NCBI GenBank assembly: GCA_963768055.1
Contig: CAVYGN010000002.1
Span: forward strand, 1 to 64,000
Direction of reading: 5' to 3'
Source: an uncultured Spirochaetota bacterium
GTDB taxonomy: Bacteria; Spirochaetota; Brevinematia; Brevinematales; JAOACQ01
DNA length: 64,000 bases
Positions 3,877 through 29,961 of this stretch are shown piece by piece; position 1 is the stretch's first letter, and each line of letters opens with the position of its first letter. The notes beneath the pieces were generated by a model. That model saw nothing but the letters and a program-made list of their open reading frames with translations, had not been told where the DNA came from and did not search any database. The position numbers were made by a program, and so were the translations under genes.

Positions 3877-4539
3877 TTATTTATACCTGGCCCTTGCGTC
3901 CAACCGTACAAGTTCAATCACTATCCTCCTGTTTTTTGCTCTTCCCTCTGGCGTATCGTTAGATGCTACAGGATTATATTTCGAGTACCCGGCGGATTTT
4001 AAAATTTCCGGGTTTACACCTTTTTCAACAAGATGCCTTACAACCGCTCCGGCCCTTGCCGTAGAAAGTTCCCAGTTTGAAGGGAATTTCCATCTATGCT
4101 CCGGCGCTATCAGCACGTTATCCGTATAGCCTTCAACCCTTATTTCCCGGTCTTTTACAGCGGCAAGGGTTTTAACAATGGCATCAAGCGCTTTAATTCC
4201 CTCAGGCTTTATAACATCGCTTCCCTCGTCAAAGAAAATATCGCTTACAAAGGTAACCCTGATGCTGTCTTCCAGGTCCTGAACCATTGTTTCCTTTGTC
4301 GTCAGTTGGTCACGAAGATCATTGACCAAATTGCTATAAGTTAACGCATTCGACTCGTTTAATTGGCTGTTGGCAGTCAGGCTCATAATCTTTTCATTAA
4401 GGGTTTCGATCTGGTTGGAGAGGCTCTGATTCTCCGCCCTTAGTTCGGTGGTTTCATCCGGTTTCGCCGGGTTCTGGGAGCAGCCAATAAAAAAGAACAA
4501 CCCCATGGAAACAAAAATAATCATAATTGATTTATACAT
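3877..4539 (-). CDS. OmpA/MotB-family lipoprotein, paralog of 137..1063
   Basis: Lipobox FIGC, short coiled coil, shared WKFPSNWELSTARA and ASNDT-EG-A-NRR motifs. Confidence 0.85.
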   Translation of the reverse strand: MYKSIMIIFVSMGLFFFIGCSQNPAKPDETTELRAENQSLSNQIETLNEKIMSLTANSQLNESNALTYSNLVNDLRDQLTTKETMVQDLEDSIRVTFVSDIFFDEGSDVIKPEGIKALDAIVKTLAAVKDREIRVEGYTDNVLIAPEHRWKFPSNWELSTARAGAVVRHLVEKGVNPEILKSAGYSKYNPVASNDTPEGRAKNRRIVIELVRLDARARYK

Positions 4540-6963: not shown

Positions 6964-7710
6964 TCAAATAGTTTTCCCTTCCTTCCGGAAAGATTTTCCA
7001 TCTTTGGATTTTACCAGGATTTTAATTGAGCCTGAAACAAGGCGGTCAAGCATAGCCCCTCCAATCACAGGATCAGGGAAGATTGCCAGCCAGTCCTCCG
7101 GAGGCCGGTTGCTTGTCAGAATAATGGACCTGTTTCCAAGCCTTTCATCGACAATCCGGTATAGGTATTCCGTTTCTTCATTGTCGAGTTTTTTAAATCC
7201 GAAATCGTCTATTATCAGGAGGTCTGTTTTAATACACTTTCTGAATAGAGTATTCTTAAACATAAGCTTTTCGCTTTTCAAGTCTTCAAGAAGAACCGCG
7301 GCTTTCTTGAAAAGAACTGTGTTTCCTCTTCTGCAGGCCTCATGGCCGACTGATTTTGCAATGCATGTTTTACCTATGCCGGGAGGCCCGGCGATGACAA
7401 CAAACTGTCTCATATCCATGAAACGGCAGGACGCGATTTCACGAATAAGCCTTGAAGGGATAGCGCTCTCATTGAAATTAAAATCAAACCCCTCGAAAGT
7501 GTTTTCCTGGCCGAACTTCGCTTCTCTCAGCCTCTTTTTGAGCATGTTATTATCCCTCTGGCATAATTCATCCTGAACTAACAAAGAGAAAAATTCTCCA
7601 TAGTCCAGGTTTGATTCTTGAGCCTCCCTGATCCGCATAGGAAGGTTGAATAGCATCCCAGGAAGCTTTAACCTCCTTAAGTTTGCCTCAAGCTGATTCT
7701 GATGTTCCAT
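6964..7710 (-). CDS. istB: IS21 helper ATPase
   Basis: GPPGIGKT Walker A, LLIIDDFG Walker B, TSNR and LDRL motifs. Confidence 0.95.
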   Translation of the reverse strand: MEHQNQLEANLRRLKLPGMLFNLPMRIREAQESNLDYGEFFSLLVQDELCQRDNNMLKKRLREAKFGQENTFEGFDFNFNESAIPSRLIREIASCRFMDMRQFVVIAGPPGIGKTCIAKSVGHEACRRGNTVLFKKAAVLLEDLKSEKLMFKNTLFRKCIKTDLLIIDDFGFKKLDNEETEYLYRIVDERLGNRSIILTSNRPPEDWLAIFPDPVIGGAMLDRLVSGSIKILVKSKDGKSFRKEGKTI

Positions 7711-14554: not shown

Positions 14555-14737
14555 ATGAAAGAGATACCTTTATCAAAAACAAACCCCTACCTTCAAAATA
14601 TCGACCAATATGAAAGATTGATCATTAATAATGTTATTACTTCCTCCGCGATTGAAATTGGAACAGTAAGTGCCAATATTATCAAAACATTGAATGAAAA
14701 GAACTCACCTAGGGTTATTTGCCTCCCCGATTATTAA
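14555..14737 (+). CDS. Putative Fic antitoxin (VbhA/FicA-like)
   Basis: 60 aa containing TSSAIEI, resembling the (S/T)xxxE(G/N) inhibitory motif; convergent with and overlapping fic. Confidence 0.5.
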   Translation: MKEIPLSKTNPYLQNIDQYERLIINNVITSSAIEIGTVSANIIKTLNEKNSPRVICLPDY

Positions 14738-15368
14738 CAGTTAAATCAAACACTTCTTTAAAAATTGATTCCATAAGCAAATAGTTTCTATCAAGCCCCA
14801 GATTTACAGCTTTGAAATATTCCTTCTTTTTTTCTTTTTTAATAAAACTAAAGTCCAATGGAGGATAACCTGCCTGAAGTGCCATCAGGGTAGATAATAA
14901 CCTGGCCACCCTTCCGTTCCCTTCCCTGAAAGGATGAATAAGTATCAATTCCACATGAGTTATAGAAATAGCGTTTATTACATTGCCGATATCATTGAAA
15001 TTACATGGAGTAAATTTGAATAGATACTCATTCTCAAATGCATCCATTAAATTTGGGATTTGGGCAGCTGCCGCGAAATTAAAATCCCCTTTGCTTAGAT
15101 TTACCTTCCTGAATTTTCCCGCCCAGGGGTAAATATTACCCAGCCATATTTTATGAATTTTAAAAATGTCACTTGTTTTAAAGCGATGGTTAGCTCCATA
15201 TGTATTAATAATTTCTTCTTCGGCTTGTTTTAAAGCCAGGGCTTCAATTCTATCCATTTCAGTTTTCTTTTTAATACCCAGCAGGTTTTTTAATACGCGA
15301 TTCCTTGAACCAGGCTCAAACTGCGCTTCAACTAATCCGGTTGTATCATATTTATTGTTCTGTTTCAA
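14715..15368 (-). CDS. Fic-domain AMP transferase
   Basis: Canonical HPFREGNGRVAR; VLKNLLGI and YPWAGKFR of class I Fic proteins. Confidence 0.93.
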   Translation of the reverse strand: MKQNNKYDTTGLVEAQFEPGSRNRVLKNLLGIKKKTEMDRIEALALKQAEEEIINTYGANHRFKTSDIFKIHKIWLGNIYPWAGKFRKVNLSKGDFNFAAAAQIPNLMDAFENEYLFKFTPCNFNDIGNVINAISITHVELILIHPFREGNGRVARLLSTLMALQAGYPPLDFSFIKKEKKKEYFKAVNLGLDRNYLLMESIFKEVFDLTVNNRGGK

Positions 15369-17841
15369 TTGAATCTCCTAATGATCCATTTACCTCATAT
15401 CCTATTGCTCTATAGCCTCTCAGCCTTTTGTCAAACATCCTTTTCAATACCGGCTCATTGATATCCGCGTAGTCATAAACTATCAATTCTTTTTTAGAAT
15501 GATGGTTTCTGTGCAGTCTTCCTACATATTGCTCCAGAGTCCCTCTCCAAGATACGGGCATTGCCAGAAAAAGAGTATCAAGCCTGGCATTATCAAAACC
15601 CTCTCCAATATATTTCCCTGTAGAAATAATAATTCTAGATTCATCATCGCTTAAATTCATAAGCATTTTCATTTTTTCTTCCAGCTTCTTTTTACCCATC
15701 CCGGCACGCAGTACGATTATATTTTTAACAATAGGGGTCAACTCTTTTTCGAAATAATCAACATGCTCTTTTCTCTCAGTAAGAAGGAGGGGAATTCTTT
15801 TATTTCCCAGTGCAGCAATTACATCATTAAGGATAATTTGGTTTCTATTCTGATCCTGAATCAGTTCCGAATAAATATCCTGAATGCTTTTATCTTTTTC
15901 ATTACTAAAAAATCCTGAAGAGGAACAAAAATCAGTGTATTTTGGTATAACAGTATGCTTTAAAACCTTTTGATCAGCTATATCCTTGTTTTGTATTTTA
16001 AATCGAATAGGCCCGCATTGCATAAATAAAATAGGCTGATGCCCGTCCTTTCGTATAGGCGTAGCTGTAAGGCCCAGCACATACTTTGCTCTAGCAGTCT
16101 TCATAACCTGTTCAAAGCTGAATGCTGAAATATGATGGCATTCATCAACTATGACAAGACCGTATTCGCTTACGATATCTTTGATTTTACCCTTACGGTT
16201 CAAAGTTTGAAGCATAGCTATATCGATAATTTTTGTCGATTTATCTTTACTGCCTCCGATCTGACCGATAGACTTATCGGGCAGTTCCAGAAACATTAAC
16301 AACCTTTGTTTCCATTGCTCCATTAATTGTTTTCGATGTACCAATATGAGGGTATTTACTTTTTTCTCTGCAATCAGGGCGGCTCCAACCACTGTTTTAC
16401 CGAATGCTGTTCCCGCGGATAAGATCCCTATTTCATAATCCAGTATTGAATTTAAAGCCTTTTCCTGGATTTGTCGGAGTTTCCCTTTGAAACTTGCTTC
16501 AATCGGTAAACCAGAGCATCTTTTATCCTCAACATTCAATTCTATATGGTTAGTTTTTAATAATTCTTTCAAGTCATCCAGGCAACCCCTGGGGATACCG
16601 ATATGGTTTGGATATTCTTCAGCTGAACTGATTATCCTTGGTTTACCGAACGTATTAAGACGCATTGCCTGGGTCCTGTAAAATTCAGGGTTTTGAAACG
16701 CTGCTAATTTACGGATCCTGTTAATCAGGAGGGAAGGAAGATTTCTTATATCAATAAAAATCATATTGGACAATACAATATCCAATTTGACCGGGAGATT
16801 ATCGCATTTCAAAGGTTCATTTAAAGCCGGAGAAGGGATTATATTCCACGGTTCCAGTTCTTCATCTTCAGTATGAGTTTGAATGCCAAAAGAAAATGCT
16901 TGCCGATAATTGTCTGAAACTATTTTGTTGACATTTGATTGTGACATTTTAACTATTCGGGAAAGGAAATCCCATTGATCCAGGAAAGGTTCTGCAGCTT
17001 CATTTATGAAAATACTGTTCCCTTCATTTCTTGGTTTTTGCTGAAGTGGCAGAGCTATCAGATTTCCAAAACCACCTTTTGGTATAGTGTCCTGGTATGG
17101 AAAGAACCGGTCATAAGATGATAAACTGATCTGGTAACGGTTATCCATTGTTCTTGTAAGAATAATAAAACCTAATTTTCTAGCTTGAAATGCAGGAATT
17201 TTTGTTTCAAAAAAAATCCAGATATGCCCTCCCTTGCCGGAACGGGAGCGCTCCAGATAAGCAGGGATATTCATATCCTTACAGGTATTCAAATATGCAA
17301 GAGCATCATCCATCCAATTAAGGTGGGCTTCTTTGTCGTCAAAATCGCAGGCAAGAAAGAAGCAATTTTCATCCCGAATCATCGGATAAACACCGATGGT
17401 TATTTTTCCAGACAAATGATCGGATATTGTTTGGTCAGCGATAGCAGCATATTTTTTATTTTCACATTCTCCGCATTTTATCATTGGTTTTTTGCAGAAT
17501 TTTCTATCCCATTCATTAGTACAAACCGGAGAATATCCCGATTTTCCCTTTTGTGACTCCCAACGGGCAGGATAAACATCTTCCCGTCCTTTAAAAAGAC
17601 TTCTGAATAACTTAATCTTTATTGTATTTGGAGAATTATGATTTACAACTTCTTTTAAGCCCTTTAAATTTAAATTCGTATTTTTTTCATCATAAGAATC
17701 ATTCGATACATGTAAATTATCAAGTGCTTGTTTTCCATTGACTGGTAACAAATTCTTAAGTCGATTGTTTTCTATATATAATCTTTTATTTTCTTGTTTC
17801 AAGGCTAGAATCTGATTCTTTAGATCTTCTAATTCCATCAT
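15352..17841 (-). CDS. AEP (TOTE-type) primase-like domain fused to an SF2 (ResIII-like) helicase
   Basis: N-terminal FKGREDVY, CxN/CxxC, DFD, ERSRSGKGGHIW and GNLIALP; C-terminal TAFGKT, DECHH, GLTAT and QYVGR. Confidence 0.85.
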   Translation of the reverse strand: MMELEDLKNQILALKQENKRLYIENNRLKNLLPVNGKQALDNLHVSNDSYDEKNTNLNLKGLKEVVNHNSPNTIKIKLFRSLFKGREDVYPARWESQKGKSGYSPVCTNEWDRKFCKKPMIKCGECENKKYAAIADQTISDHLSGKITIGVYPMIRDENCFFLACDFDDKEAHLNWMDDALAYLNTCKDMNIPAYLERSRSGKGGHIWIFFETKIPAFQARKLGFIILTRTMDNRYQISLSSYDRFFPYQDTIPKGGFGNLIALPLQQKPRNEGNSIFINEAAEPFLDQWDFLSRIVKMSQSNVNKIVSDNYRQAFSFGIQTHTEDEELEPWNIIPSPALNEPLKCDNLPVKLDIVLSNMIFIDIRNLPSLLINRIRKLAAFQNPEFYRTQAMRLNTFGKPRIISSAEEYPNHIGIPRGCLDDLKELLKTNHIELNVEDKRCSGLPIEASFKGKLRQIQEKALNSILDYEIGILSAGTAFGKTVVGAALIAEKKVNTLILVHRKQLMEQWKQRLLMFLELPDKSIGQIGGSKDKSTKIIDIAMLQTLNRKGKIKDIVSEYGLVIVDECHHISAFSFEQVMKTARAKYVLGLTATPIRKDGHQPILFMQCGPIRFKIQNKDIADQKVLKHTVIPKYTDFCSSSGFFSNEKDKSIQDIYSELIQDQNRNQIILNDVIAALGNKRIPLLLTERKEHVDYFEKELTPIVKNIIVLRAGMGKKKLEEKMKMLMNLSDDESRIIISTGKYIGEGFDNARLDTLFLAMPVSWRGTLEQYVGRLHRNHHSKKELIVYDYADINEPVLKRMFDKRLRGYRAIGYEVNGSLGDSIETEQ

Positions 17842-17890
17842 TAATAATCCCAATATAATATTGAATAAAATCAATCAAATCAATAAGATT

Positions 17891-18444: not shown

Positions 18445-20705
<2,261 letters not shown>

Positions 20706-20727
20706 CAAAGTAACAGGAGGTAAATCC

Positions 20728-21561
20728 ATGGCTATCAATGAAACAGCGAATAAAAACCATGAGGCGCTTTTTCCGAATCACAAATCAACATTAAAAGCGA
20801 CCGATCCGGAACTGATAGAGGTATTCGATAATTTTGCTTTTGATGAAGTGCTGGATTATGGCAACATGGATGCAAGAGCAAGGTTAATGATTATTCTGGG
20901 ATCAATGATCGCAAGCCAGGCATTAGGCGAATATAAAGTAATGCTTGGCGGTGCGCTGAATATGGGTGTAACGCCGGTTGAGGTTAAAGAAATAGTATAT
21001 CAAGCTGTGCCTTATGCCGGAATGGCAAAAGTATTTGATTTTATCCAGGCCACAAATGAAATACTGGAAAGCAGGGGGTTAAAGCTTCCGCTGGAAGGAC
21101 AATCGACAACAACACCTGAAACTCGGCTTGAAAAAGGATTGGAAGTGCAAAAATCCATTTTTGGGGAAATGATTGATAAGATGTACAAGGAATCGCCGGC
21201 TGATCAGATTCATATCCAGAAATATTTGTCAGCGAATTGTTTTGGTGATTATTATACAAGAAAGGGACTGGATATTAAAACAAGAGAACTTTTGACGTTT
21301 TCAATGATCTTATCCCTGGGAGGATGCGAGCCTCAGTTAAAAGGGCATATACAAGGCAATATGAATGTCGGAAATGATAAAGGAGTATTGCTTACTGCAA
21401 TTACCCAATTACTGCCATTTGTGGGATATCCGAGAGCACTCAACGCAATAAGATGTTTAAATGAAGTTTTTGTGCATCTTTCTATCGAGGTAAATCCCGA
21501 AAAGGGTCAGGCTACATGGCTTGACCCGGTATCTGACCAGGATTACGATAAATTGAAATAA
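20728..21561 (+). CDS. Carboxymuconolactone decarboxylase (double CMD) family protein with a cupin-like tail
   Basis: Two CMD repeats (FAFDEV; CFGDYYTRKGLD..RELLT; GYPRALNA). Confidence 0.88.
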   Translation: MAINETANKNHEALFPNHKSTLKATDPELIEVFDNFAFDEVLDYGNMDARARLMIILGSMIASQALGEYKVMLGGALNMGVTPVEVKEIVYQAVPYAGMAKVFDFIQATNEILESRGLKLPLEGQSTTTPETRLEKGLEVQKSIFGEMIDKMYKESPADQIHIQKYLSANCFGDYYTRKGLDIKTRELLTFSMILSLGGCEPQLKGHIQGNMNVGNDKGVLLTAITQLLPFVGYPRALNAIRCLNEVFVHLSIEVNPEKGQATWLDPVSDQDYDKLK

Positions 21562-21573
21562 GGAAGTATTTCT

Positions 21574-22167
21574 ATGGCTATAAACGACACGGAAAGAAAA
21601 AACGTGATAATTCTAGGTGCTGGCGGTCAAATTGCAAGTCATGCGATTGAAATGTTGGTAAAATTGGATAATATTAATCTGACCCTTTTTTTGCGAAATA
21701 AAAGCAGATTAAAGAAAAACAATATTTCCAAATGCCGTATCATCGAAGGCGACGTTCTTGATATCAATCAGCTCAAGGAGGCTATTAACGGACAGGATAT
21801 CGTATATGCAAATCTTTCAGGCGATTTGGAGGCGATGGCAAAAAACATCGTGAAAGCTATGGAAGATAAAGGAGTCAAAAAACTCATCTTCATAAGTTCT
21901 ATAGGTATTTATGATGTTCCTTTGCGACCAGTTTTAAAGCCTTACCGGAATGCTACTGATGTAATAGAATCATCTGATCTTGATTACACCATCCTGAGGC
22001 CGACCTGGTTTACAGGTGCTGATGAAGTGGATTATGAAATTACAGAAAAAGGCGAGCCGGAAAAAGGTTCAGAGATCTCTCAAAAAAGCCTGGCGACATT
22101 TATAGTTAAAATTATCGAATCTCCTGAAAATTATAAACGTAAAAACCTTGGCATAAGCAAACCATAG
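21574..22167 (+). CDS. NAD(P)-binding short-chain oxidoreductase
   Basis: ILGAGGQIA and LDYTILRPTW motifs. Confidence 0.88.
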   Translation: MAINDTERKNVIILGAGGQIASHAIEMLVKLDNINLTLFLRNKSRLKKNNISKCRIIEGDVLDINQLKEAINGQDIVYANLSGDLEAMAKNIVKAMEDKGVKKLIFISSIGIYDVPLRPVLKPYRNATDVIESSDLDYTILRPTWFTGADEVDYEITEKGEPEKGSEISQKSLATFIVKIIESPENYKRKNLGISKP

Positions 22168-22190
22168 ACTACTATATACGGAGGATACTT

Positions 22191-22727
22191 ATGAGCAGGA
22201 AAATTTTAGTGCTTTCAGCGAGTCCGAGAAAAGGAGGAAACTCAGATTTGCTATGTGATCAATTTATGATGGGAACAAAAGATGGCGGACATGAAGCTGA
22301 AAAGATATTTTTAAAGGATAAAAATATAAATTACTGCACAGGTTGTGGCAACTGTTTCAACGGCAAGAGTTGTTCCCAGAAAGATGATATGGGCAGTATA
22401 CTGGATAAAATGATTTCAGCCGATGCAATTGTGATGGCAACTCCTGTATATTTTTACACTATGAACGCTCAGATGAAAACTTTAATAGACAGAACCTGTT
22501 CCCGTTATACTGAAATTTCGAATAAGGATTTTTATTTTATTGTAACTGCCGCTGACAACAGCAAGCATGCTATGGAAAGGGCACTTGAAGGATTCAGAGC
22601 ATTTACCTCCTGCCTGAGCGGGGCACAGGAAAAGGGAATCGTTTATGGAACCGGCGCATGGAACATTGGGGAGATAAAAGGAAAGCTTGCGATGAAAGAA
22701 GCATATGAAATGGGGAAGCAGGTTTAA
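22191..22727 (+). CDS. Iron-sulfur flavoprotein / flavodoxin family
   Basis: SPRKGGNS, CTGCGNC...C and TPVYF motifs. Confidence 0.9.
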   Translation: MSRKILVLSASPRKGGNSDLLCDQFMMGTKDGGHEAEKIFLKDKNINYCTGCGNCFNGKSCSQKDDMGSILDKMISADAIVMATPVYFYTMNAQMKTLIDRTCSRYTEISNKDFYFIVTAADNSKHAMERALEGFRAFTSCLSGAQEKGIVYGTGAWNIGEIKGKLAMKEAYEMGKQV

Positions 22728-22742
22728 TTTAGATATAAGAAT

Positions 22743-22909
22743 CGAAATCAAATCGTAATCAGTTGATACTTGAAATACTTAATTGTTTTATATTAAAGGA
22801 GTTAGATTAGAATATAATCCGGAGGAGGAGGGATACGAATGCAGCGTTATTCCATACCCTGTATGGAATAACAAAACTTCGAAAAATTTTTACTGGCACC
22901 TGACTGGCA
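22743..22909. repeat. att-like junction 4 (type-B arm, tRNA 3' copy at 22820, hairpin, type-A arm)
   Basis: CGAAATCA and CGTAATCA at 22743 and 22754; 19/20 match to the tRNA end; TTATTCCATAC-CCT-GTATGGAATAA; TACTGGCACCTGACTGGCA at 22891. Confidence 0.88.
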
Positions 22910-23243
22910 TACCCTTCAGGCACTAAAGGAAGTTTTTTAGTAAAAAACAAGCTCTTCTTGCTTTGAAAAATGTAGATCTATGCCCAGGAATTTCGGGCTT
23001 GATATTAGGCAATTGTCGTCTCTGTCTGATTTTCTTGATATGCTTTTCAAACAGTAACTCGTTTACAGATTCTAAACGTGGCGGTTATAGCTGAAATAAT
23101 AAGTCAAAAAAAGACACAATTGTTCTGGCATAAAAAGAGATAGTAAAATAAAAAACTTAAGGAGACTCTTTCACAATATGGGCGGGCAGTTGGTATAATG
23201 AAATTATTGAGTTTAAGTACAGTTTTATTTATAATTTCGATAT

Positions 23244-24653
23244 ATGGGAAAAAATGAAAATGTTTCATATTTTTATAATGGGTTCATCAGCTACAGGCAT
23301 AAAGAGCGGGATCGGAAATGGGCCAAAACGCTTTTTGAAGCGCTGGAAAATTTTCGTTCTCCTAAGGCGCTGATAAAAACAGGAACCTCTCCAAGGATTA
23401 GCAGGATTTTTCGCGATGAAAACGAACTGCCGACATCACCCAACCTTAGCGATGATATCAATCGCGCGCTGGAGGCATCCAGGACGCTTATCGTGGTCTG
23501 TTCGAAAGACACTCCATTTTCCCTCTGGGTCTGCAGGGAAATTGAGGCATTTATAGAAATGGGCAGAGGAAATCGGATTTTTGCCATTGTGATAGATGAT
23601 GATCCTGACATGTCGCTGCCTGAGCCTTTGAAAATATTTTTCGGTAAAGACGGGGAAAAAGAGGAATATCACGGCCATATGATACGGTTGAAGACCGGAA
23701 AACTTAATTACCCGGCTTTTATTCCCGTAATAGCCGAAGCTTTAGGAGTAAAATCTGATCTATTGTCGGAAGCGATAATAAAAACTGCCGTTAGGAAGCG
23801 CAAAATCACTGCGGCCATCATGACATCAGCAATTGCCGTTATCGCAGTCATCTTTTATCTCATATATGATTACATAGGATTAAAAACTTTGTATTACCGA
23901 TCTTTTGCAGATCGATATTCCCTTCCTGCCGGCATCGGCATGATCGACTTTAAAAAAAATAATCAAGCAGGTTCGATGTACCGTTTTGAGATCAGGATGG
24001 GGAAATTGTTCAGGGTAGTTATGGTAGATAGCCAAGGGGAAAAAAAAGATGACGACTGGGGAATTTCCGAACGAGATATATCCTACACTTCCGGTAAAAT
24101 ACAGATTACACTTAAAAATTCAAGAGGGGTTGTCCTGCAGATCAGGGACTATACCGGAGACAGGTTACAGGTAGAGTTGACATCCGGGAACGGATATGAG
24201 ATATTCCGCGGCTGGGAAAGCCCTTCTTCCCATTTGTGTTCCTTTACGCCCAGAAATAAACTGATTCCCTCCTATATAAATATAGAATATGATGAAAATG
24301 GTTTTATCCGCAAGGAGATGTACTTCCATGATCAGTGGAATACTCCGGCTTTTGACGAATGTTCGAACTCGGGAAAATTGTTTGAATATAACCGGAACGG
24401 CCTGGTAACAGAGTGGCGGGGGCTCGACAGCAGCGGAGATTTGATGCAGACAGGGCCTAAAGCCGGCGGAGAAAAGCTCTCTTATGGCCCTGACGGCAGG
24501 GAACTTTCCAGGGCTTTTATCAACGGCAGGGGAGAGATTGTGAACGGGCCTGGAAAGCCATACGCGCAAGTTCGATTTATTTATGAAGTAAACGGTTCAA
24601 TATTGACAAATTACTTTGATTCTAATAATGATCCCCTGCCCGGAAATCAGTAA
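23244..24653 (+). CDS. TIR domain, single TM, extracytoplasmic repeat-derived domain
   Basis: FISYRH, IFRDENEL, LIVVCS and WVCREI; RKRK followed by a hydrophobic helix; YD-like repeats at the C-terminus. Confidence 0.88.
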   Translation: MGKNENVSYFYNGFISYRHKERDRKWAKTLFEALENFRSPKALIKTGTSPRISRIFRDENELPTSPNLSDDINRALEASRTLIVVCSKDTPFSLWVCREIEAFIEMGRGNRIFAIVIDDDPDMSLPEPLKIFFGKDGEKEEYHGHMIRLKTGKLNYPAFIPVIAEALGVKSDLLSEAIIKTAVRKRKITAAIMTSAIAVIAVIFYLIYDYIGLKTLYYRSFADRYSLPAGIGMIDFKKNNQAGSMYRFEIRMGKLFRVVMVDSQGEKKDDDWGISERDISYTSGKIQITLKNSRGVVLQIRDYTGDRLQVELTSGNGYEIFRGWESPSSHLCSFTPRNKLIPSYINIEYDENGFIRKEMYFHDQWNTPAFDECSNSGKLFEYNRNGLVTEWRGLDSSGDLMQTGPKAGGEKLSYGPDGRELSRAFINGRGEIVNGPGKPYAQVRFIYEVNGSILTNYFDSNNDPLPGNQ

Positions 24654-24664
24654 AGGAGTGACTT

Positions 24665-27493
24665 ATGCCCGATATAACAACATTTCAATATGACGTGTTT
24701 ATAACCTGCAGAAATATACCTCAGGACAGGGCCTGGGCGGCATGGCTCCTCAGATCCATCCTGAAATACCGGGTATCAAAAGCACTCCGGAAAAGAGGGA
24801 TACCGTCACGGGTGAGTAAAATTTACTTGGACGAAGATGAACTGGCAATCACCCCGAATCTTTCTGAAAAAGCGATTAAAGCCTTGGAAACTTCAGGCTG
24901 CCTCATAGTTATATGTTCAACTCAAACGAAACAATCGCTATGGATAGAAATGGAAATAGATCTTTTTCGTAAACTCGGAAGGGGAAACCGGATACTTGTC
25001 CTCTTGGTTGAAGGTGAACCAGGCGAATCTTTTCCGAAAGGGTTGCTTGAAATAACTGAAACAGAGGAACTTCAGGACGGAAGCCTGAGAAAAACGGTAA
25101 AAAAGGTTGAACCCCTGGCCGCCGATGTGCGCCCGAGGAAGGATGAAACGCGGGGAAAATTGAAAATATTGGCAATTCTACGAATATTGGCCGGCATACT
25201 GGGATGCACATTTGACGATCTTTTTCAGAGGGAAAAACGAAGGCGGAAACGCCGGACCATAACGGCTATATCGATATCAGCGTCTTTATTTATCGCTATA
25301 TGCGCAATAACATTCAGCGTATGGCTTTCCAGCTTGCCGCAGGTCGAATATTACAACAGTTTTGTTTACAGATGGGGCAAACCCGCAGGTATCGGGGAAG
25401 TGGATAAGGCATCTGCGGCCAGAAGGCTGCAAACATACCGCTTTGAGACGAAAAACGGGAGACTGCTGAGAGTTGTGCTTCAAAACGGTAGCGGAATGCC
25501 GATGCCGGATAACTCCGGGGTCAGCGAATGGAGGATGGATTACACAACCGGCTATACGAACGGGACATTTAAACAAATCGAGTGTTTTAACATTAATGGG
25601 ATGGTTGTTATGAAGCGGGATTATTCGGACGATTATAAAACTATCGAGCTTAAAGACGCTTTTGACAGGCCTTATGCCAAACCGTCAGAAGGGATTGATT
25701 TACTCCTCCTGACCGAGCTTATCATACAAGACAATAATAAAACGAAAAAACCGATGATCAACCGGATAAAAACCGAATTGGACACTGACGGATTTGTCGT
25801 AAACGAAATTTACCAGAGGGACGTGTTCGGTACGCCTGAGGCGGACGAAAACGGCAGCTACGGTAAAATCTTCACTCTGGACAGACAGGGGCTGGTGCTT
25901 GAATACCACAGCATCGGCAGAGGCGGCAAATCAAGCCCGATGAAAGAAGGCGTAAGCGTGGAAAAAAGGCAGTACAACGATTTGGGAAATGAGGTTGATA
26001 AAGTTTTTACAGGCCCCGAAGGCCGGCCGTTTATGCCGATCTCGCTCGGTTATGCTGAAAGGACCATGAAGTATGATAATGCGGGAAATGAGATCGAATC
26101 CGCCTACTTTGATGAAAAAGGGAAGGCGATTATTAACAGGAGCGGATATTCGAAGGCTGCAATGAGCTATGATAATCGTGGAAACCAGATCGGGATCGCC
26201 TTCTTTGATAAAGATGGAAACCCTGCCATGTCTAAAGATTTTGGCTATTCAATGATTATTTCAAAGTGGGATGAAAGAGGAAACCAGATTGAGATTGACT
26301 TTTTCGGAACTGACAGGAAACCTTGCGTTTGCAATGAAGGATACTCTAAAGTGAAATTCAGGTATGACGGAAGAGGGAACCAGATTGGAAATTCTTATCT
26401 GGACACCGACGGAAAACCTGTACTCTCAAAGGGCGGGTATGCAAAATTAATTTTGAAGTATGACAACCGGGGCAACCTGATCGAAACTATCTGCCTGGGC
26501 GTCGACGGAAAACCTGTCAACTCGAAGGACGGGTACGCGATTATTAAATCAAAGTTTGATAAACAGGGCAATAAGATTGAGGAATCGCTATTCGGAGCCG
26601 AAGGGAAACCCGTCCTTAACAAGTCGGGATATTTTAAAACGTTGGTAAAATATGACGAAAGGGGAAACCAGATCGAGAAGGTCTGCATTGGGACAAACGG
26701 GAAACCCGCACTGAATATTGATGGCTACTCTAAGGTGACTGAGAAGTACGATGAACGCGGGAATCAGACCGAATGGGCATACTTCGGCACTGACGGGAAA
26801 CCTATCCTTGAAAATACTTACGGCATCGCAAGGAATATTTCGGCGTATGACGATAGGGGCAACATGACCGGATGGGCCTGTTATGATACTGGAGGTAAAC
26901 CCATGCTTGATAAAGACGGCATAGCGATGATAGCCATGAAATATGACGAACTGGGAAATGTTATAGACATTGAATATTTTGACACCGACGGAAAACCTGT
27001 CAAGTGTAACGCTGGTTACGCGAAGTGGACGGAGAAGTATGACGCAAGAGGAAACCGTATCGAGTTTGACTGCTTCGGGACGGATGGGAAACCTGTACTT
27101 GACAGGGACGGCGCAGCAAAAATCACGATGAGGTATAACAAACGTAATTTAATGATCGAAAACGCCTTTTACGGCACGGACGGAAAACTTATCATTATAA
27201 AAAACGGGTATGCCAGATCAGAAGTTAAGTATGACGAACGCGGGAATATGATAGAGAATGACTACTTCGGCGTGGACGGGAAACCCATCCTATGCAGTGA
27301 CGGGATCGCAAAATGGACTGAGAGTTTCGACGAAAGATGGAATGCGGTTGAAATAGCCTATTTCGGGATCGATGGGAAGCCTGTTGCCTGTAAATTAGGA
27401 TTTGCGAAATGGGAAGGCAAGTATGATGAACGGGGAAAGGTCATTGATAATGAATATTTTGATAAAAACGGGAATATAATATCACTAAATTAA
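24665..27493 (+). CDS. TIR domain, single TM, about 16 tandem 32-aa YD-like repeats
   Basis: YDVFI, IYLDEDEL and WIEMEI; KRRRKRR followed by TM; repeat consensus KYDERGNxIExxxFGxDGKPxxxxxGYAK. Confidence 0.9.
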   Translation: MPDITTFQYDVFITCRNIPQDRAWAAWLLRSILKYRVSKALRKRGIPSRVSKIYLDEDELAITPNLSEKAIKALETSGCLIVICSTQTKQSLWIEMEIDLFRKLGRGNRILVLLVEGEPGESFPKGLLEITETEELQDGSLRKTVKKVEPLAADVRPRKDETRGKLKILAILRILAGILGCTFDDLFQREKRRRKRRTITAISISASLFIAICAITFSVWLSSLPQVEYYNSFVYRWGKPAGIGEVDKASAARRLQTYRFETKNGRLLRVVLQNGSGMPMPDNSGVSEWRMDYTTGYTNGTFKQIECFNINGMVVMKRDYSDDYKTIELKDAFDRPYAKPSEGIDLLLLTELIIQDNNKTKKPMINRIKTELDTDGFVVNEIYQRDVFGTPEADENGSYGKIFTLDRQGLVLEYHSIGRGGKSSPMKEGVSVEKRQYNDLGNEVDKVFTGPEGRPFMPISLGYAERTMKYDNAGNEIESAYFDEKGKAIINRSGYSKAAMSYDNRGNQIGIAFFDKDGNPAMSKDFGYSMIISKWDERGNQIEIDFFGTDRKPCVCNEGYSKVKFRYDGRGNQIGNSYLDTDGKPVLSKGGYAKLILKYDNRGNLIETICLGVDGKPVNSKDGYAIIKSKFDKQGNKIEESLFGAEGKPVLNKSGYFKTLVKYDERGNQIEKVCIGTNGKPALNIDGYSKVTEKYDERGNQTEWAYFGTDGKPILENTYGIARNISAYDDRGNMTGWACYDTGGKPMLDKDGIAMIAMKYDELGNVIDIEYFDTDGKPVKCNAGYAKWTEKYDARGNRIEFDCFGTDGKPVLDRDGAAKITMRYNKRNLMIENAFYGTDGKLIIIKNGYARSEVKYDERGNMIENDYFGVDGKPILCSDGIAKWTESFDERWNAVEIAYFGIDGKPVACKLGFAKWEGKYDERGKVIDNEYFDKNGNIISLN
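25973..27490 (+). repeat. Coding tandem repeat, about 96-bp (32-aa) unit
   Basis: About 16 units starting YNDLGN, YDNAGN, YDNRGN, WDERGN...; diverged at the DNA level. Confidence 0.9.
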
Positions 27494-27508
27494 TATTTTT
27501 TATTGAAA

Positions 27509-29308
27509 TCAATTCAACTTTTCATCAGCGGGAATAATATTGTATATTTCCTGTTTTCCGAATCCCTTTGCGAGATCTATAATCCCAACATATTCATATT
27601 TGTATTTTTCCGGATAGTCCAGCATAAGTAAAGTAGTAAACTGGTCTGTAGCATAGATGCTGCCTGGTACGGTTACAGGTTCAATCCTCGCAGCCCTGTT
27701 TACATGACTCCCGTAAGCGTTCATTTTACCGGTAATCGGGTCTCTTGCTACAAATATCGGCCCGGTGTGCAAGGCAATCCGTATGTTAATATTTTCAGGC
27801 AGGTTGAATTCAGACCACCTGGTTTCCCTAAAAATATTCCTTAAGATGACTGCGTATTCGGCGGCCTCCAAAGGGCTGGAAAATACTGAGAATATTGCGT
27901 CTCCCCAGGTGTTGACAATATAAGGTCTGATCCTGAAATTATTTATGCGGACGGCAATCTTATTTAAAAGCACATGCATGAAATAGGGCATTTGTTCTTC
28001 GTTCAATTTTGAAAAACCCTTAATATCAGAGAACAAGATGCTTTTTATAAATCTCTTTAAACCGAAAGGCGGCGCCGATTTATCATTGCCCGTGATTGAT
28101 ATAGGCTTATTTTGATAAGTTTTGTCTCTAGAAATGTACTTTTTCGGGTCAATTATAATGATGTTATTACGACCTTTGTATTTTTTAAAAAATTCTTCAG
28201 TCCCTCCTGTTTTAATATTTTTTTTACTTGAATGAAATACCCCCATCATATAATATTCAGCCTGTAGGCTTTTAGAACGCACTTGTGCCTGGCCGAGGAT
28301 TATCCTGTTCAGGAAAGAGAATAATTCGTCGCTGCCCAGGTATCTCTCCTCGGTAATGTAGTTGACGCGGGTTTTCTCTAATATTTTATTAAAACGGTCA
28401 ACCCAGTTTTGGCCTGCAAACCCCACGCTTTTTTCGATAAAATCATCCTTTTGAAAAGGAAGATAAACATTTACTTCGGCCCCTCGTTCCAGCATGGCCT
28501 CCACGAAGAGAATATCCGACCCGCATGCAAGAGATGAATAACCGATGCCAGCGTCAATTTCCTGCAGGCGGTGCTTGATATCTTTTTTTATTTCCACGGA
28601 TATCGTTTCAGGAAACCTTGGAACAACTCGATCGGGATGATCAATCATGTGGCCGGAGAACACAACTATCGGTTTGGGTTTCAATATATTCAAGATATCT
28701 GCCGGAATGCTGATAATGTTTTTTAAAAATAATATTTGATGGTAGGAACTGTTGACGTTGCCGGGAGATTCTGACGAAGTTTTTACGGCTTCTTCGTAGT
28801 AATGAAACGCATTTACTGGGTCGTTTATGATCAGGTAAGCCTCGCCGAGGGTGGCTAAGGACCAGTAATCTTTACAGTCATTTTTCATGATGATATCGAT
28901 AACTGATTGGGCAATACCGACGGCTTCTGCCTTATCCCCAACAGCAAAAGACATAGTCGCGGCGTTGATACCGTTATAATAGTCCTTTTCCTTTCTGAAA
29001 CAATCCCGGTAAATCTCCCTGGATTTTTGCCCGTATTCAGGATTATTGGTTTTTTTGAAAAGGTCTTTATAAATTCTGCCCAGGATTCCTGACGTTTCGG
29101 GGTCTTTATTAACCTTATATATAGATTCCATGTGATCTTTGGCTTTGATCGGTTCACCGATCTTCGCAAGTACCAGGCCTTTCAGCTGTAATAGCCTTAT
29201 ATTGTCCGGATTATTAACAAGTTTTGAATTTAAAAGATTATAAGCTTCAATAAAGCGGCCTTTTTTTATTGTGATCTCAACTTCTGTTATTTCCTGTTCT
29301 ATTTCCAT
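27509..29308 (-). CDS. TPR (TPR-S/MAP3K TRAF-binding-like), SLOG-like and class III nucleotide cyclase protein
   Basis: GILGRIYKD, YYNGINAAT and DYWSLATLGEA; FSGHMID..RFP and SLACGSDILF; ILFSDIKGFS, TWGDA, RIALHTGP and VNRAARIEP. Confidence 0.85.
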   Translation of the reverse strand: MEIEQEITEVEITIKKGRFIEAYNLLNSKLVNNPDNIRLLQLKGLVLAKIGEPIKAKDHMESIYKVNKDPETSGILGRIYKDLFKKTNNPEYGQKSREIYRDCFRKEKDYYNGINAATMSFAVGDKAEAVGIAQSVIDIIMKNDCKDYWSLATLGEAYLIINDPVNAFHYYEEAVKTSSESPGNVNSSYHQILFLKNIISIPADILNILKPKPIVVFSGHMIDHPDRVVPRFPETISVEIKKDIKHRLQEIDAGIGYSSLACGSDILFVEAMLERGAEVNVYLPFQKDDFIEKSVGFAGQNWVDRFNKILEKTRVNYITEERYLGSDELFSFLNRIILGQAQVRSKSLQAEYYMMGVFHSSKKNIKTGGTEEFFKKYKGRNNIIIIDPKKYISRDKTYQNKPISITGNDKSAPPFGLKRFIKSILFSDIKGFSKLNEEQMPYFMHVLLNKIAVRINNFRIRPYIVNTWGDAIFSVFSSPLEAAEYAVILRNIFRETRWSEFNLPENINIRIALHTGPIFVARDPITGKMNAYGSHVNRAARIEPVTVPGSIYATDQFTTLLMLDYPEKYKYEYVGIIDLAKGFGKQEIYNIIPADEKLN

Positions 29309-29506
29309 CGCATCCCCGTAACTAATTAATAACAAAAAGCGAATGAAGCAAACTAAAGAATATCAATCGATTATATCCCTGAGCAAGTTACCGCTTTGAT
29401 CATAAATTCCATGTAAAACCACCATATTTTCCTCTATTAATCTAATAATGAATCGAAAAAAACACAAGCCTACTATTAGTCAATATCATAATTTTATTAC
29501 TATTAT

Positions 29507-29818
29507 GCCAGTGCCATTAATCGACCTAACTTTATATTGAGCATGCGGTTCAAGACCTATGGTGCCCTCCGGGCACCTTCGGCACCTGACTGGCAAAATT
29601 TATCGATTTACCGATTTTTGGTTAGGTTGGTCATATTTTCCGGAATCATCAATGGATTAAATTAACAAATCAATATTTTCTGTTTAAGAATTTAAATAAG
29701 GCTTATATTATTAATATGTATGGAGATATGATAATATTGGATTCTCAGAATTTAGTCTATCCGTGTAATCTATGAAATCTGTGGTTTCTATTTCGTTGTG
29801 GGGTAAGGAATTATGATT
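29507..29818. repeat. Type-A cassette end adjoining the intact tRNA
   Basis: GCCAGTGCCA...GGCACCTGACTGGCAAAATT and GTGTAATCTATGAAATCTG, matching 10234-10252. Confidence 0.8.
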
Positions 29819-29903
29819 CGGAGGAGGAGGGATTCGAACCCCCGATACCTTACGGTATAACAGTTTTCAAGACTGCCTCCTTCGACCGCTCGGACACTCC
29901 TCC
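29819..29903 (-). tRNA. tRNA-Ser(TGA)
   Basis: GGAGGAG/CTCCTCC acceptor stem, anticodon loop CTTGAAA, long variable arm, GGTTCGAATC T-loop, G discriminator; CCA not encoded. Confidence 0.96.
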
Positions 29904-29961
29904 GTTTTTATAAAGAAGTTATTTTATAACAGGCAGCGGCATTTGTCAAAATACCCGCCGT

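Follow-up and report, generated by a model that had tools for sequence, protein, structure and literature searches.

What does a bacterial TIR protein that seems to face the outside of the cell report, and to which partner? The question is raised by three neighbouring genes in a 64,000-nucleotide stretch of DNA from an uncultured Spirochaetota bacterium (assembly GCA_963768055.1, contig CAVYGN010000002.1, positions 1 to 64,000), hereafter called the window. Genes A (23244..24653, 469 aa) and B (24665..27493, 942 aa) follow each other on the forward strand. According to the open reading frame (ORF) list and Pfam, B is a full-length receptor-type protein with a TIR domain, a transmembrane (TM) span and YD-like repeats, and A is a short, divergent paralogue of the same TIR-TM-sensor layout. 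Gene C (27509..29308), on the reverse strand, encodes a protein to which Pfam, a structural model and fold matches assign a TPR-S domain, a YpsA-like SLOG domain and a class III nucleotide cyclase domain. A first-pass annotation of this DNA had taken A and B for a receptor and its co-receptor and had missed C; we find C to be a better-supported functional partner than A and B are for each other. In the reading that we prefer, and to which we give a probability of about one half, A, B and C constitute an accessory Thoeris-like module in which an envelope-facing TIR sensor would produce a signal derived from nicotinamide adenine dinucleotide (NAD), the SLOG and TPR-S domains of C would receive it, and a cyclic mononucleotide (cNMP) would be the output.

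A and B aligned over 487 columns with 31% identity (BLASTP, E 6e-60), which identifies them as paralogues; the alignment spanned the TIR domain, the membrane span, the post-membrane motif and the first repeats. The TIR domain of A (aa 14-125, 23283..23618, forward strand) matched Pfam TIR_2 with an E value of 1.2e-10 (42.4 bits) and ThsB_TIR with 1.7e-09 (38.4 bits), that of B (aa 11-119, 24695..25021, forward strand) with 3.1e-06 (28.1 bits) and 3.3e-06 (27.9 bits), the cut-offs of the two families being 28 and 21.2 bits. The description of A and B as tandem paralogues with an N-terminal TIR domain was thereby borne out, and so was the retention of the glutamate of the WxxxE motif, which reads WVCRE in A (W95 to E99) and WIEME in B (W93 to E97). 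In an alignment of 28 family members the tryptophan was conserved in 26 sequences and the glutamate four residues further on in 27. Compared with solved structures, A aligned weakly (E 0.016-0.07) to the plant TIRs 3jrn, 5ku7 and 7jlv, and its E99 fell on the glutamate of their WCLDEL/WCLEEL motif, the residue that plant TIR NADases use for catalysis. When PDB sequences were searched with a profile of the A/B family, weak plant-TIR and PDZ matches were again all that came up, and the repeats matched nothing. Conserved TIR columns were kept to a similar extent in both proteins (48 of 62 in A, 46 of 62 in B). Judged by these residues, A and B have catalytic potential as NADase-type TIRs.

Each protein contained one strong hydrophobic span, as had been claimed, with Kyte-Doolittle 19-mer maxima of 2.36 (from residue 189 of A) and 2.23 (from residue 199 of B). 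The hydropathy profile places the spans at about aa 189-211 in A (23808..23876, forward strand), directly after an RKRK sequence, and at about aa 199-221 in B (25259..25327, forward strand). Lysine and arginine were more frequent in the 15 residues before the span than in the 15 after it, with 5 versus 3 in A and 8 versus 1 in B. The basic patch that the first-pass annotation had called a stop-transfer patch is indeed present, but the classical label does not fit: the patch lies N-terminal of the span, on the predicted cytoplasmic side, and is therefore better described as the positive-inside anchor of an N-in signal-anchor. On this topology, the cytoplasm would contain the TIR domain of A and B plus about 60-70 residues, which in B include a juxtamembrane segment conserved in the family consensus (EPLAADVRPR ... 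FDDLFQRE-KRRRKRR; 25052..25258, forward strand). Behind the span, alignments delimit in B a post-TM domain common to A and the family (aa 222-436, 25328..25972, forward strand). The motif YY.SF..R...PAGIG...YRFE...G.L.RVV, quoted earlier as the mark of a shared post-TM domain, was visible in the BLASTP alignment of A and B. B kept 20 of 22 conserved juxtamembrane columns and 23 of 27 post-TM columns, A 11 of 22 and 15 of 27. From alignment and repeat analysis, the predicted extracytoplasmic part of A (23877..24650, forward strand) consists of the post-TM domain and about four degenerate YD-like units. Read together, these features mark A and B as predicted N-in/C-out single-pass membrane proteins.

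The same layout was found throughout a large family. Searched against 1.84 billion cluster representatives, A matched 11,009 at E <= 0.001, 6,790 at <= 1e-10 and 135 at <= 1e-30. With B as query, 8,000 candidates were scored and 295 of them reached E <= 0.001; full-length identity to B was 35-44% in the best. The constant part of the family consists of the TIR domain (Pfam TIR_2 matched 28 of 28 members), the juxtamembrane segment (EPLAADVRPR ... FDDL.QR) and the membrane span. Beyond it the members differ: they may carry YD-like repeats (which in some relatives end in a PDZ domain), WD40 propellers or TPR arrays. PDZ domains are typical of periplasmic proteins, and one was found at the end of 6 of the 28 members. 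A hydrophobic span starting at residues 150-330 was present in 115 of the 120 homologues listed; 113 of these 115 had more lysine and arginine before the span than after it (15-residue flanks, means 6.28 vs 2.57), and a signal-peptide-like N-terminus was seen in none of the 115. The topology prediction that the first-pass annotation had proposed, made here by hydropathy and charge bias, therefore indicated one positive-inside span for A, B and nearly all of these relatives, and together with the conserved glutamate it supports the receptor layout drawn there, with a cytoplasmic TIR, one TM span and external repeats. The data fit a family of N-in/C-out receptors whose signalling head is cytoplasmic and whose outer sensor can be exchanged. 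Receptors under diversifying pressure would be expected to show just such a swapping of sensors (YD repeats, WD40, TPR, PDZ) while the head stays constant. Since the family is large, with its 6,790 representatives at E <= 1e-10, one tested example would annotate many genes.

In B the outer sensor is built of 16 YD/RHS-like repeats of 32 aa, delimited by repeat analysis (aa 437-942, 25973..27490, forward strand), with the unit YDxRGNxIExxxFGxDGKPVxxxxGYAKxxxK. A has about four degenerate units (aa 349-469), so that the counts given earlier, about 16 in the long and 3-4 in the short protein, agree with ours. In neither gene did Tandem Repeats Finder detect a repeat array at the level of the DNA, which marks the repeats as old. 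NCBIfam YD_repeat_2x matched B with 16.4 bits (cut-off 15.8, E 0.0095). Pfam RHS_repeat matched 10 of the 28 family members (best E 2e-08), B itself being unmatched, and the nearest Atlas clusters to the repeats, RHS_repeat/GtfB_M, had sub-threshold scores of 0.86-0.89 and serve as a lead only. We classify the repeats of B, from their sequence, as probable distant relatives of RHS/YD repeats. A YD-like repeat ectodomain was also observed behind the TM span of proteins with other heads, namely Ser/Thr kinase (P0044, P0046) and nSTAND (P0048), and P0050 is likewise among the proteins that have such an ectodomain behind Ser/Thr kinase or nSTAND1 heads. By their sequences, heads appear to be swapped on a common repeat sensor as well.

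Gene C is 599 aa long as called in the protein collection; its ORF runs to 29335, which allows 608 aa. An AlphaFold2 model built on 33 homologues had a predicted local distance difference test score (pLDDT) of 89.3 and a predicted template modelling score (pTM) of 0.88, and was compared by VIA-align with 48,161 PDB representatives. Numbered on the 599-aa form, residues 1-211 (28676..29308, reverse strand) are a TPR-S domain (Pfam E 2.7e-18, 66.9 bits against a cut-off of 27.6). The family profile of C matched ASK1 (5ulm, E 4.8e-08), and the model of this part has the fold of the ASK1 central regulatory region (5ulm_B, Z 18.5, root-mean-square deviation (rmsd) 3.0 over 208 residues). For residues 211-393 (28130..28678, reverse strand) the model and its fold match indicate a SLOG domain of the YpsA type: it superposed on B. 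subtilis YpsA (2nx2_A) with Z 18.4 and rmsd 2.4 over 153 of 178 residues at 16% identity. Neither the family profile of C searched against PDB sequences nor a Protein Atlas search gave a usable match for this middle domain, and Foldseek on the whole model returned cyclases only; the SLOG match came from the wide VIA-align comparison. A TIR domain at this place was considered and rejected (hhalign against a TIR profile, probability 1%). On the strength of the model, we assign the middle domain to the YpsA-type SLOG domains. Residues 415-597 (27518..28066, reverse strand) match Pfam Guanylate_cyc (E 9.3e-16) and have the fold of CyaB (3r5g_B, Z 21.8, rmsd 2.2, 177 aligned residues); Pycsar uridylate and cytidylate cyclases gave lower values (Z 15.2-16.1) than ordinary class III cyclases. 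The metal-binding aspartates D428 and D470 and R541 were invariant in all 33 homologues, and N537 in the eight closest. Sequence and model thus agree on a predicted class III cyclase with intact catalytic residues. The position that is lysine in adenylyl and glutamate in guanylyl cyclases is asparagine in C, so the product of the cyclase cannot be named. With 13 cNMP_binding matches, the host genome offers potential readers for a cNMP that C would make.

The family of C comprised 511 matches among the candidates scored. Some homologues were fused to further domains: P0151 and P0158 to cNMP_binding and a SpoIIE phosphatase, which puts a reader of the cyclase product in the same chain, and P0222, P0225, P0229, P0230, P0233, P0236 and P0238 to a RyR domain. 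Small ORFs with a RyR domain only (about 96 aa) adjoin SLOG genes in three TIR-TM loci (L046, L047, L056).

The three genes appear to have arrived together. With a 20-kb DNA query, both flanks were matched in all four same-genus genomes, and the interval 22908-29815, which contains exactly A, B and C, was unmatched in all four. The matching left flank is a MerR/oxidoreductase operon extending to about 22908; the right flank matches from 29816 onward, beginning with tRNA-Ser(TGA) (29818..29904, reverse strand), which bounds the 6.9-kb block on the right. At the protein level, B had no match in the four same-genus genomes and some match in only 6 of 60 relatives. The block thus lies next to a tRNA gene, as had been noted before, and one horizontally acquired three-gene block is the best explanation. 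Within it, A and B are separated by 11 bp and are probably co-transcribed. A 516-bp gap divides A from the preceding operon and contains two sigma-70-like promoter matches (23170..23235, forward strand), one at 23170-23199 with 11/12 positions and a TG extension and one at 23207-23235 with 10/12, both consensus matches only. B and C are convergent, with stop codons 15 bp apart, and A-B and C are therefore not one transcript. The two intergenic gaps contained no small ORF of note.

In 79 genome loci of the TIR-TM family, 912 ORFs were clustered and the recurrent clusters named with Pfam and with profiles of the three domains of C; 18 of these loci have less than 3 kb of upstream sequence. A protein with SLOG and cyclase domains directly adjoined the TIR gene in four loci (L032, L039, L056, L059), from Phycisphaerae and Planctomycetia of the Planctomycetota and from Lentisphaerae, and in two of them it lay 20-69 bp upstream on the same strand. 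In five more loci (L033, L040, L046, L047, L085) the neighbour had SLOG joined to SLATT or to about four TM helices, so that a SLOG partner of any kind adjoined 9 of the 79. The TIR proteins of the SLOG-linked loci carry TPR, WD40, WD40 plus ankyrin, or PDZ ectodomains; the link therefore follows the TIR head and not the sensor. Other recurrent partners were TrkA_N(-RyR) membrane proteins in seven loci and DHH/DHHA1 phosphoesterases of a Lachnospiraceae type in twelve, and 26 of the 79 loci have one of the three partner types. A tblastn search of the window for the partner types of relatives (TrkA_N-RyR, DHH, sigma-like, SLOG-SLATT) found none of them.

The reciprocal comparison started from 79 metagenome loci of C homologues, searched with an iterated TIR profile. 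Twenty TIR ORFs were detected in 19 loci; a check with Pfam TIR_2 confirmed 12 of the 19, left 3 unscanned and 4 unconfirmed (TPR+HD proteins, a fragment). Nineteen of the TIR ORFs lay within 2.5 kb of the C homologue, in 263 kb of DNA, and one lay farther away, in 316 kb, which corresponds to an approximately 23-fold higher density. In one locus (L170) the TIR protein beside the C homologue belongs to the A/B family (E 7.7e-46); the other TIR neighbours were TIR-FGE-sulfatase, TIR-kinase and TIR-WD40 proteins and TIR-TM proteins of other kinds. The gene-neighbourhood search that the first-pass annotation had proposed thus gave SLOG partners beside TIR-TM genes and TIR ORFs beside C homologues. 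Adjacency of TIR and C-type genes is real and enriched, but it occurs in a minority of loci, not all of them independent.

Some of these neighbourhoods deserve a description of their own. The DHH/DHHA1 protein (about 508 aa) stands beside a TIR-TM gene in L062, L064, L065, L068, L070 and L074 and further in L075, L077, L078, L084, L090 and L091, with its gene 0-61 bp upstream in 10 of the 12 loci; it might degrade or process a nucleotide signal. Among the C homologues, an nSTAND1 nucleoside triphosphatase (NTPase) of about 1,300 aa was found in an apparent operon with C in ten loci that have no TIR gene, and a 269-aa protein matching no Pfam family lay a median of 25 bp upstream of C in thirteen; L095, L105, L107, L112, L114, L115, L117, L119 and L133 are among the loci of these two kinds. 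TIR proteins with a C-terminal FGE-sulfatase domain stood directly beside the C homologue in L147, L157, L159 and L162, and by profile only in L152, L154 and L164. In L162, though not in L147, L157 or L159, a hydrophobic span separates the two domains.

The pairing of A with B, by comparison, has less to recommend it. A and B lie 11 bp apart, keep the TIR core equally well (48 and 46 of 62 columns) and differ in their ectodomains, as would suit a receptor with its co-receptor. Copies were counted within the fetched stretch of each of the 79 TIR-TM loci: at least two were present in 9, a single one in 70, and in the YD subfamily at least two copies occurred in only 3 of 19 loci, all from Brachyspira. 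A quick maximum-likelihood tree of 41 sequences placed A and B in one 13-member clade (support 97); there the sister of B was the metagenomic protein P0003 (support 100) rather than A, whose terminal branch was 2.07 long against a median of 0.54. The tandem copies of Brachyspira were near-identical, with terminal branches of 0.02-0.03, and are thus recent duplicates and not a short/long pair. With half of its conserved juxtamembrane columns lost, A is by sequence an old, fast-evolving, shortened paralogue, and B looks like the canonical receptor. The earlier proposal of a receptor/co-receptor pair consequently found weak support, and to an obligate heteromer we give a low probability; an A-B heteromer is possible, and is not a conserved feature of the family. 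Because A is divergent and shortened and differs from B in its ectodomain and juxtamembrane segment, its role may be to modulate B or to perceive another cue.

The Brachyspira loci (L013:1839-11081, L014:5395-10917, L027:1552-14144) contain two or three of these tandem YD-type TIR-TM genes, some copies being apparently split into two ORFs. They follow a TrkA_N membrane protein of about 830 aa and a 214-aa sigma-70 region 2 protein. The PrimPol-helicase and Fic genes of the window, described below, were considered as counterparts of these two genes and rejected, the Brachyspira proteins being of the TrkA_N and sigma-70 region 2 types.

How could the three proteins of the window work together? 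The YD/RHS-like ectodomains of A and B would face the periplasm or envelope and the TIR domains the cytoplasm. A ligand or an envelope event at the ectodomain would cluster the receptors, the TIR domains would assemble, and the conserved glutamate (E99 in A, E97 in B) would cleave NAD+ to give an ADP-ribose-derived signal. This could be read by the SLOG domain of C, by its TPR-S domain, or by both; the reading would switch on the class III cyclase, and the resulting cyclic mononucleotide, whose base we leave unspecified, could act through cNMP-binding proteins of the host. A receiving role for SLOG is suggested by its being joined elsewhere to pore-type outputs, that is to SLATT or to about four TM helices. 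Topology and domain content are read from the sequence, and from them we infer every biochemical step of the relay. Its purpose is most likely defence against phage or another envelope-breaching invader, of which we are less certain than of the wiring. More tentative still, and somewhat doubtful in our view, is a Toll-like relay of two messengers whose sensing of an invader or of damage to the envelope takes place outside the cytoplasm and which could raise the alarm before, or without, entry of a phage genome.

Several observations weigh against the module as we propose it. A C-like partner adjoins only 4 of the 79 TIR-TM loci, and 53 have none of the recurrent partner types; conversely, an A/B-family TIR protein occurs in only 1 of the 79 C-homologue loci, the others being of different architecture and in part soluble. 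Six of the TIR-linked loci (L147, L152, L154, L157, L159, L164) are syntenic and hence not independent; with several linked loci being close relatives, the counts overstate independence. C homologues also stand beside nSTAND1 NTPases, in ten loci that lack a TIR gene. In the window itself, A-B and C are on opposite strands and not in a single transcript, and a cyclase as neighbour is in itself unremarkable, because the genome has 15 cyclase-domain matches. At four well-conserved positions (S14T, Y15C, H17N, F54Y), and also at R55L, the TIR domain of B does not follow the family consensus. The ectodomain is placed outside by hydropathy and charge bias only. Finally, PADLOC matches for A, B and C were weak (best E 8.6e-05), including those of A and B to ThsB (E 0.0039 and 0.0016), and for C no effector was matched by PADLOC apart from PycC (E 0.00096).

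Some of these points would be accommodated if A and B were self-contained suicide receptors whose TIR domains deplete NAD+ in an abortive infection, with no diffusible signal and with C unrelated or loosely coupled. TIR effectors that deplete NAD+ are well established (10.64898/2025.12.03.692087), and both the 53 loci that have no recurrent partner and the orientation of C on the opposite strand are what such a receptor would lead one to expect. The joint absence of A, B and C from the same-genus genomes speaks against it, as do the recurrence of SLOG-bearing proteins beside family members in several phyla and the roughly 23 times denser TIR ORFs within 2.5 kb of C homologues than beyond; we consider it unlikely. 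The relay could also run in the reverse order, as in Pycsar and Pucsar, with C as the sensor that makes a cNMP and the membrane TIR proteins as effectors. Indeed, cGMP cyclases paired with TIR and TM effectors have been reported (10.64898/2026.08.12.744502), C has its weak PADLOC match to PycC, and its fold resembles the Pycsar cyclases, if less than ordinary class III enzymes. Pfam, however, detected no cNMP-binding domain in A or B, whose cytoplasmic part is filled by the TIR domain and its 60-70 further residues. C moreover has two domains of a sensor type, SLOG and TPR-S, ahead of its cyclase, and the joining of SLOG to SLATT or to pore-type TM helices in other proteins puts it on the receiving side, which leaves the reverse order very unlikely.

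A third possibility concerns purpose more than wiring: the proteins could take no part in defence and instead pass an envelope or cell-contact cue into the ordinary cNMP network. Signalling by cNMPs is well represented in the genome (15 cyclase and 13 cNMP_binding matches), the Brachyspira members stand behind sigma-70 region 2 and TrkA_N proteins, which suggests regulation or ion flux, PADLOC scores were weak, and tblastn with A against a phage collection gave no match. On the other hand, the distribution is patchy (0 of 4 same-genus genomes, any match in 6 of 60 relatives), the block adjoins a tRNA gene, ectodomains are exchanged freely while the TIR head stays constant, as happens in immune receptors, and the SLATT, SLOG and TPR-S partners are known from Thoeris-type systems. 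PADLOC-listed candidate defence genes, a PrimPol-helicase and a Fic protein, lie 5 kb away. A purely non-immune role thus seems quite unlikely to us, and the Thoeris-like module with C as receiver remains the reading that we prefer.

These two genes are themselves a candidate two-gene defence unit. An 840-aa AEP-TOTE primase-polymerase with a ResIII/DEAD helicase domain (Pfam E 9.6e-99; PADLOC PrimPol 1.3e-89) is followed by a 217-aa Fic protein (PADLOC PDC-S04, 1.7e-75) at 14715-17874 on the reverse strand, that is about 5 kb upstream of A and on the other strand. Parts of the unit match same-genus genomes. It is separated from A by a housekeeping-looking operon common to the same-genus genomes, at 18445-22727, which encodes a MerR regulator, two aldo/keto reductases, a CMD-family protein, a NAD(P)H-binding protein and an FMN reductase and resembles a redox or electrophile stress operon. 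Further away (137-1084, 3877-4539, 6964-7710), two MotB/OmpA-like proteins matched PADLOC ZorB (E 3e-22) and one 248-aa protein matched DrmD (2.1e-21); the three matches may reflect generic domains and not genes of defence.

A literature search found no paper describing an architecture of TIR, TM span and repeats together with TPR-S, SLOG and cyclase, a result that does not by itself make the architecture unpublished. Thoeris works through a TIR protein that detects infection and then produces a signal derived from ADP-ribose, for an adjacent effector to read (10.64898/2025.12.03.692087). According to the same source, type I combines the TIR protein ThsB with ThsA (SIR2-SLOG), whose SLOG domain binds 3' cyclic ADP-ribose (3'cADPR), type VII pairs a TIR protein with the SLATT effector ThsH, and type VIII pairs one with ThsI, a CMP-hydrolase-TPR protein, for whose TPR a role in TIR signalling was predicted by Burroughs and Aravind. 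Its screen dropped TIR proteins outside multigene operons, and its main text never names 'cyclase' as a Thoeris effector. The window resembles these systems in that Glu-retaining TIR proteins adjoin C, which bears SLOG and a TPR of the TPR-S type, and in that relatives of A and B pair with SLOG-SLATT-like membrane proteins. It differs in that A and B span the membrane and carry a large repeat sensor outside the cytoplasm, while the known ThsB proteins are described as sensing phage within it; in that the output of C would be a second-messenger cyclase and not a killing enzyme or pore; and in that A/B and C are convergent instead of forming an operon. By analogy, then, the module would work like Thoeris without being a proven member of it.

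Two further systems share single domains of C. A TPR-S-bearing protein is genomically linked to a TIR protein in BcTir/BcTpr (10.1101/2023.05.26.542521), as C is linked to TIR proteins in the window; there, however, an N-terminal nucleosidase-like domain precedes the TPR, whereas C has the order TPR-S, SLOG, cyclase. A YpsA branch has been placed among nucleotide-centred conflict systems (Brzozowski et al. 2019, PMC6459960), and that work, in the legend of its Fig. 1A, includes adenylyl/guanylyl cyclase among the architectures and neighbourhoods depicted. The middle domain of C shares the fold of B. subtilis YpsA, which unlike the internal module of C is a stand-alone protein tied to cell division, and of which the C domain keeps only 16% of identical residues. 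Pycsar and Pucsar share with the window a class III-type cyclase gene beside proteins with TIR and TM parts. There, sensing is the task of the cyclase and cNMP binding that of a domain in the TIR protein, whereas C carries sensor domains of its own and Pfam, at E up to 0.1, found no cNMP_binding domain in A or B.

In their layout, A and B resemble membrane receptors. PCTM proteins consist of a ParA domain with a C-terminal TM span and periplasmic repeats and are paired with SLATT-type effectors (10.64898/2026.10.19.760177); they share with the window a cytoplasmic head, a TM span and a variable periplasmic domain beside an effector gene, and differ in that the head is a ParA NTPase and not a TIR domain, with no NAD-derived signal implied. 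Toll-like and IL-1 receptors likewise cross the membrane once, with a sensor built of repeats on the outside and a TIR domain in the cytoplasm. In A and B, however, the TIR domain is N-terminal in an N-in protein, whereas in the animal receptors it is C-terminal in a type I protein; the repeats are YD/RHS-like and not leucine-rich or immunoglobulin repeats, Pfam having found no leucine-rich repeat; and the TIR domain keeps an enzyme-type glutamate rather than serving as a scaffold. We take the resemblance to be one of layout only, from which no common descent of the whole architecture follows. If the proposed relay is true, it would nevertheless offer a testable bacterial parallel to the animal receptor layout. 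Compared with Thoeris, the module departs in two ways, by a sensor half that spans the membrane and by a second-messenger synthase as output. The first would move the sensing step, which in characterised Thoeris TIR proteins is described as taking place inside the cell, to the envelope; the second would link an NAD-derived signal and a cNMP in series, a coupling that the Thoeris literature examined does not show for any type.

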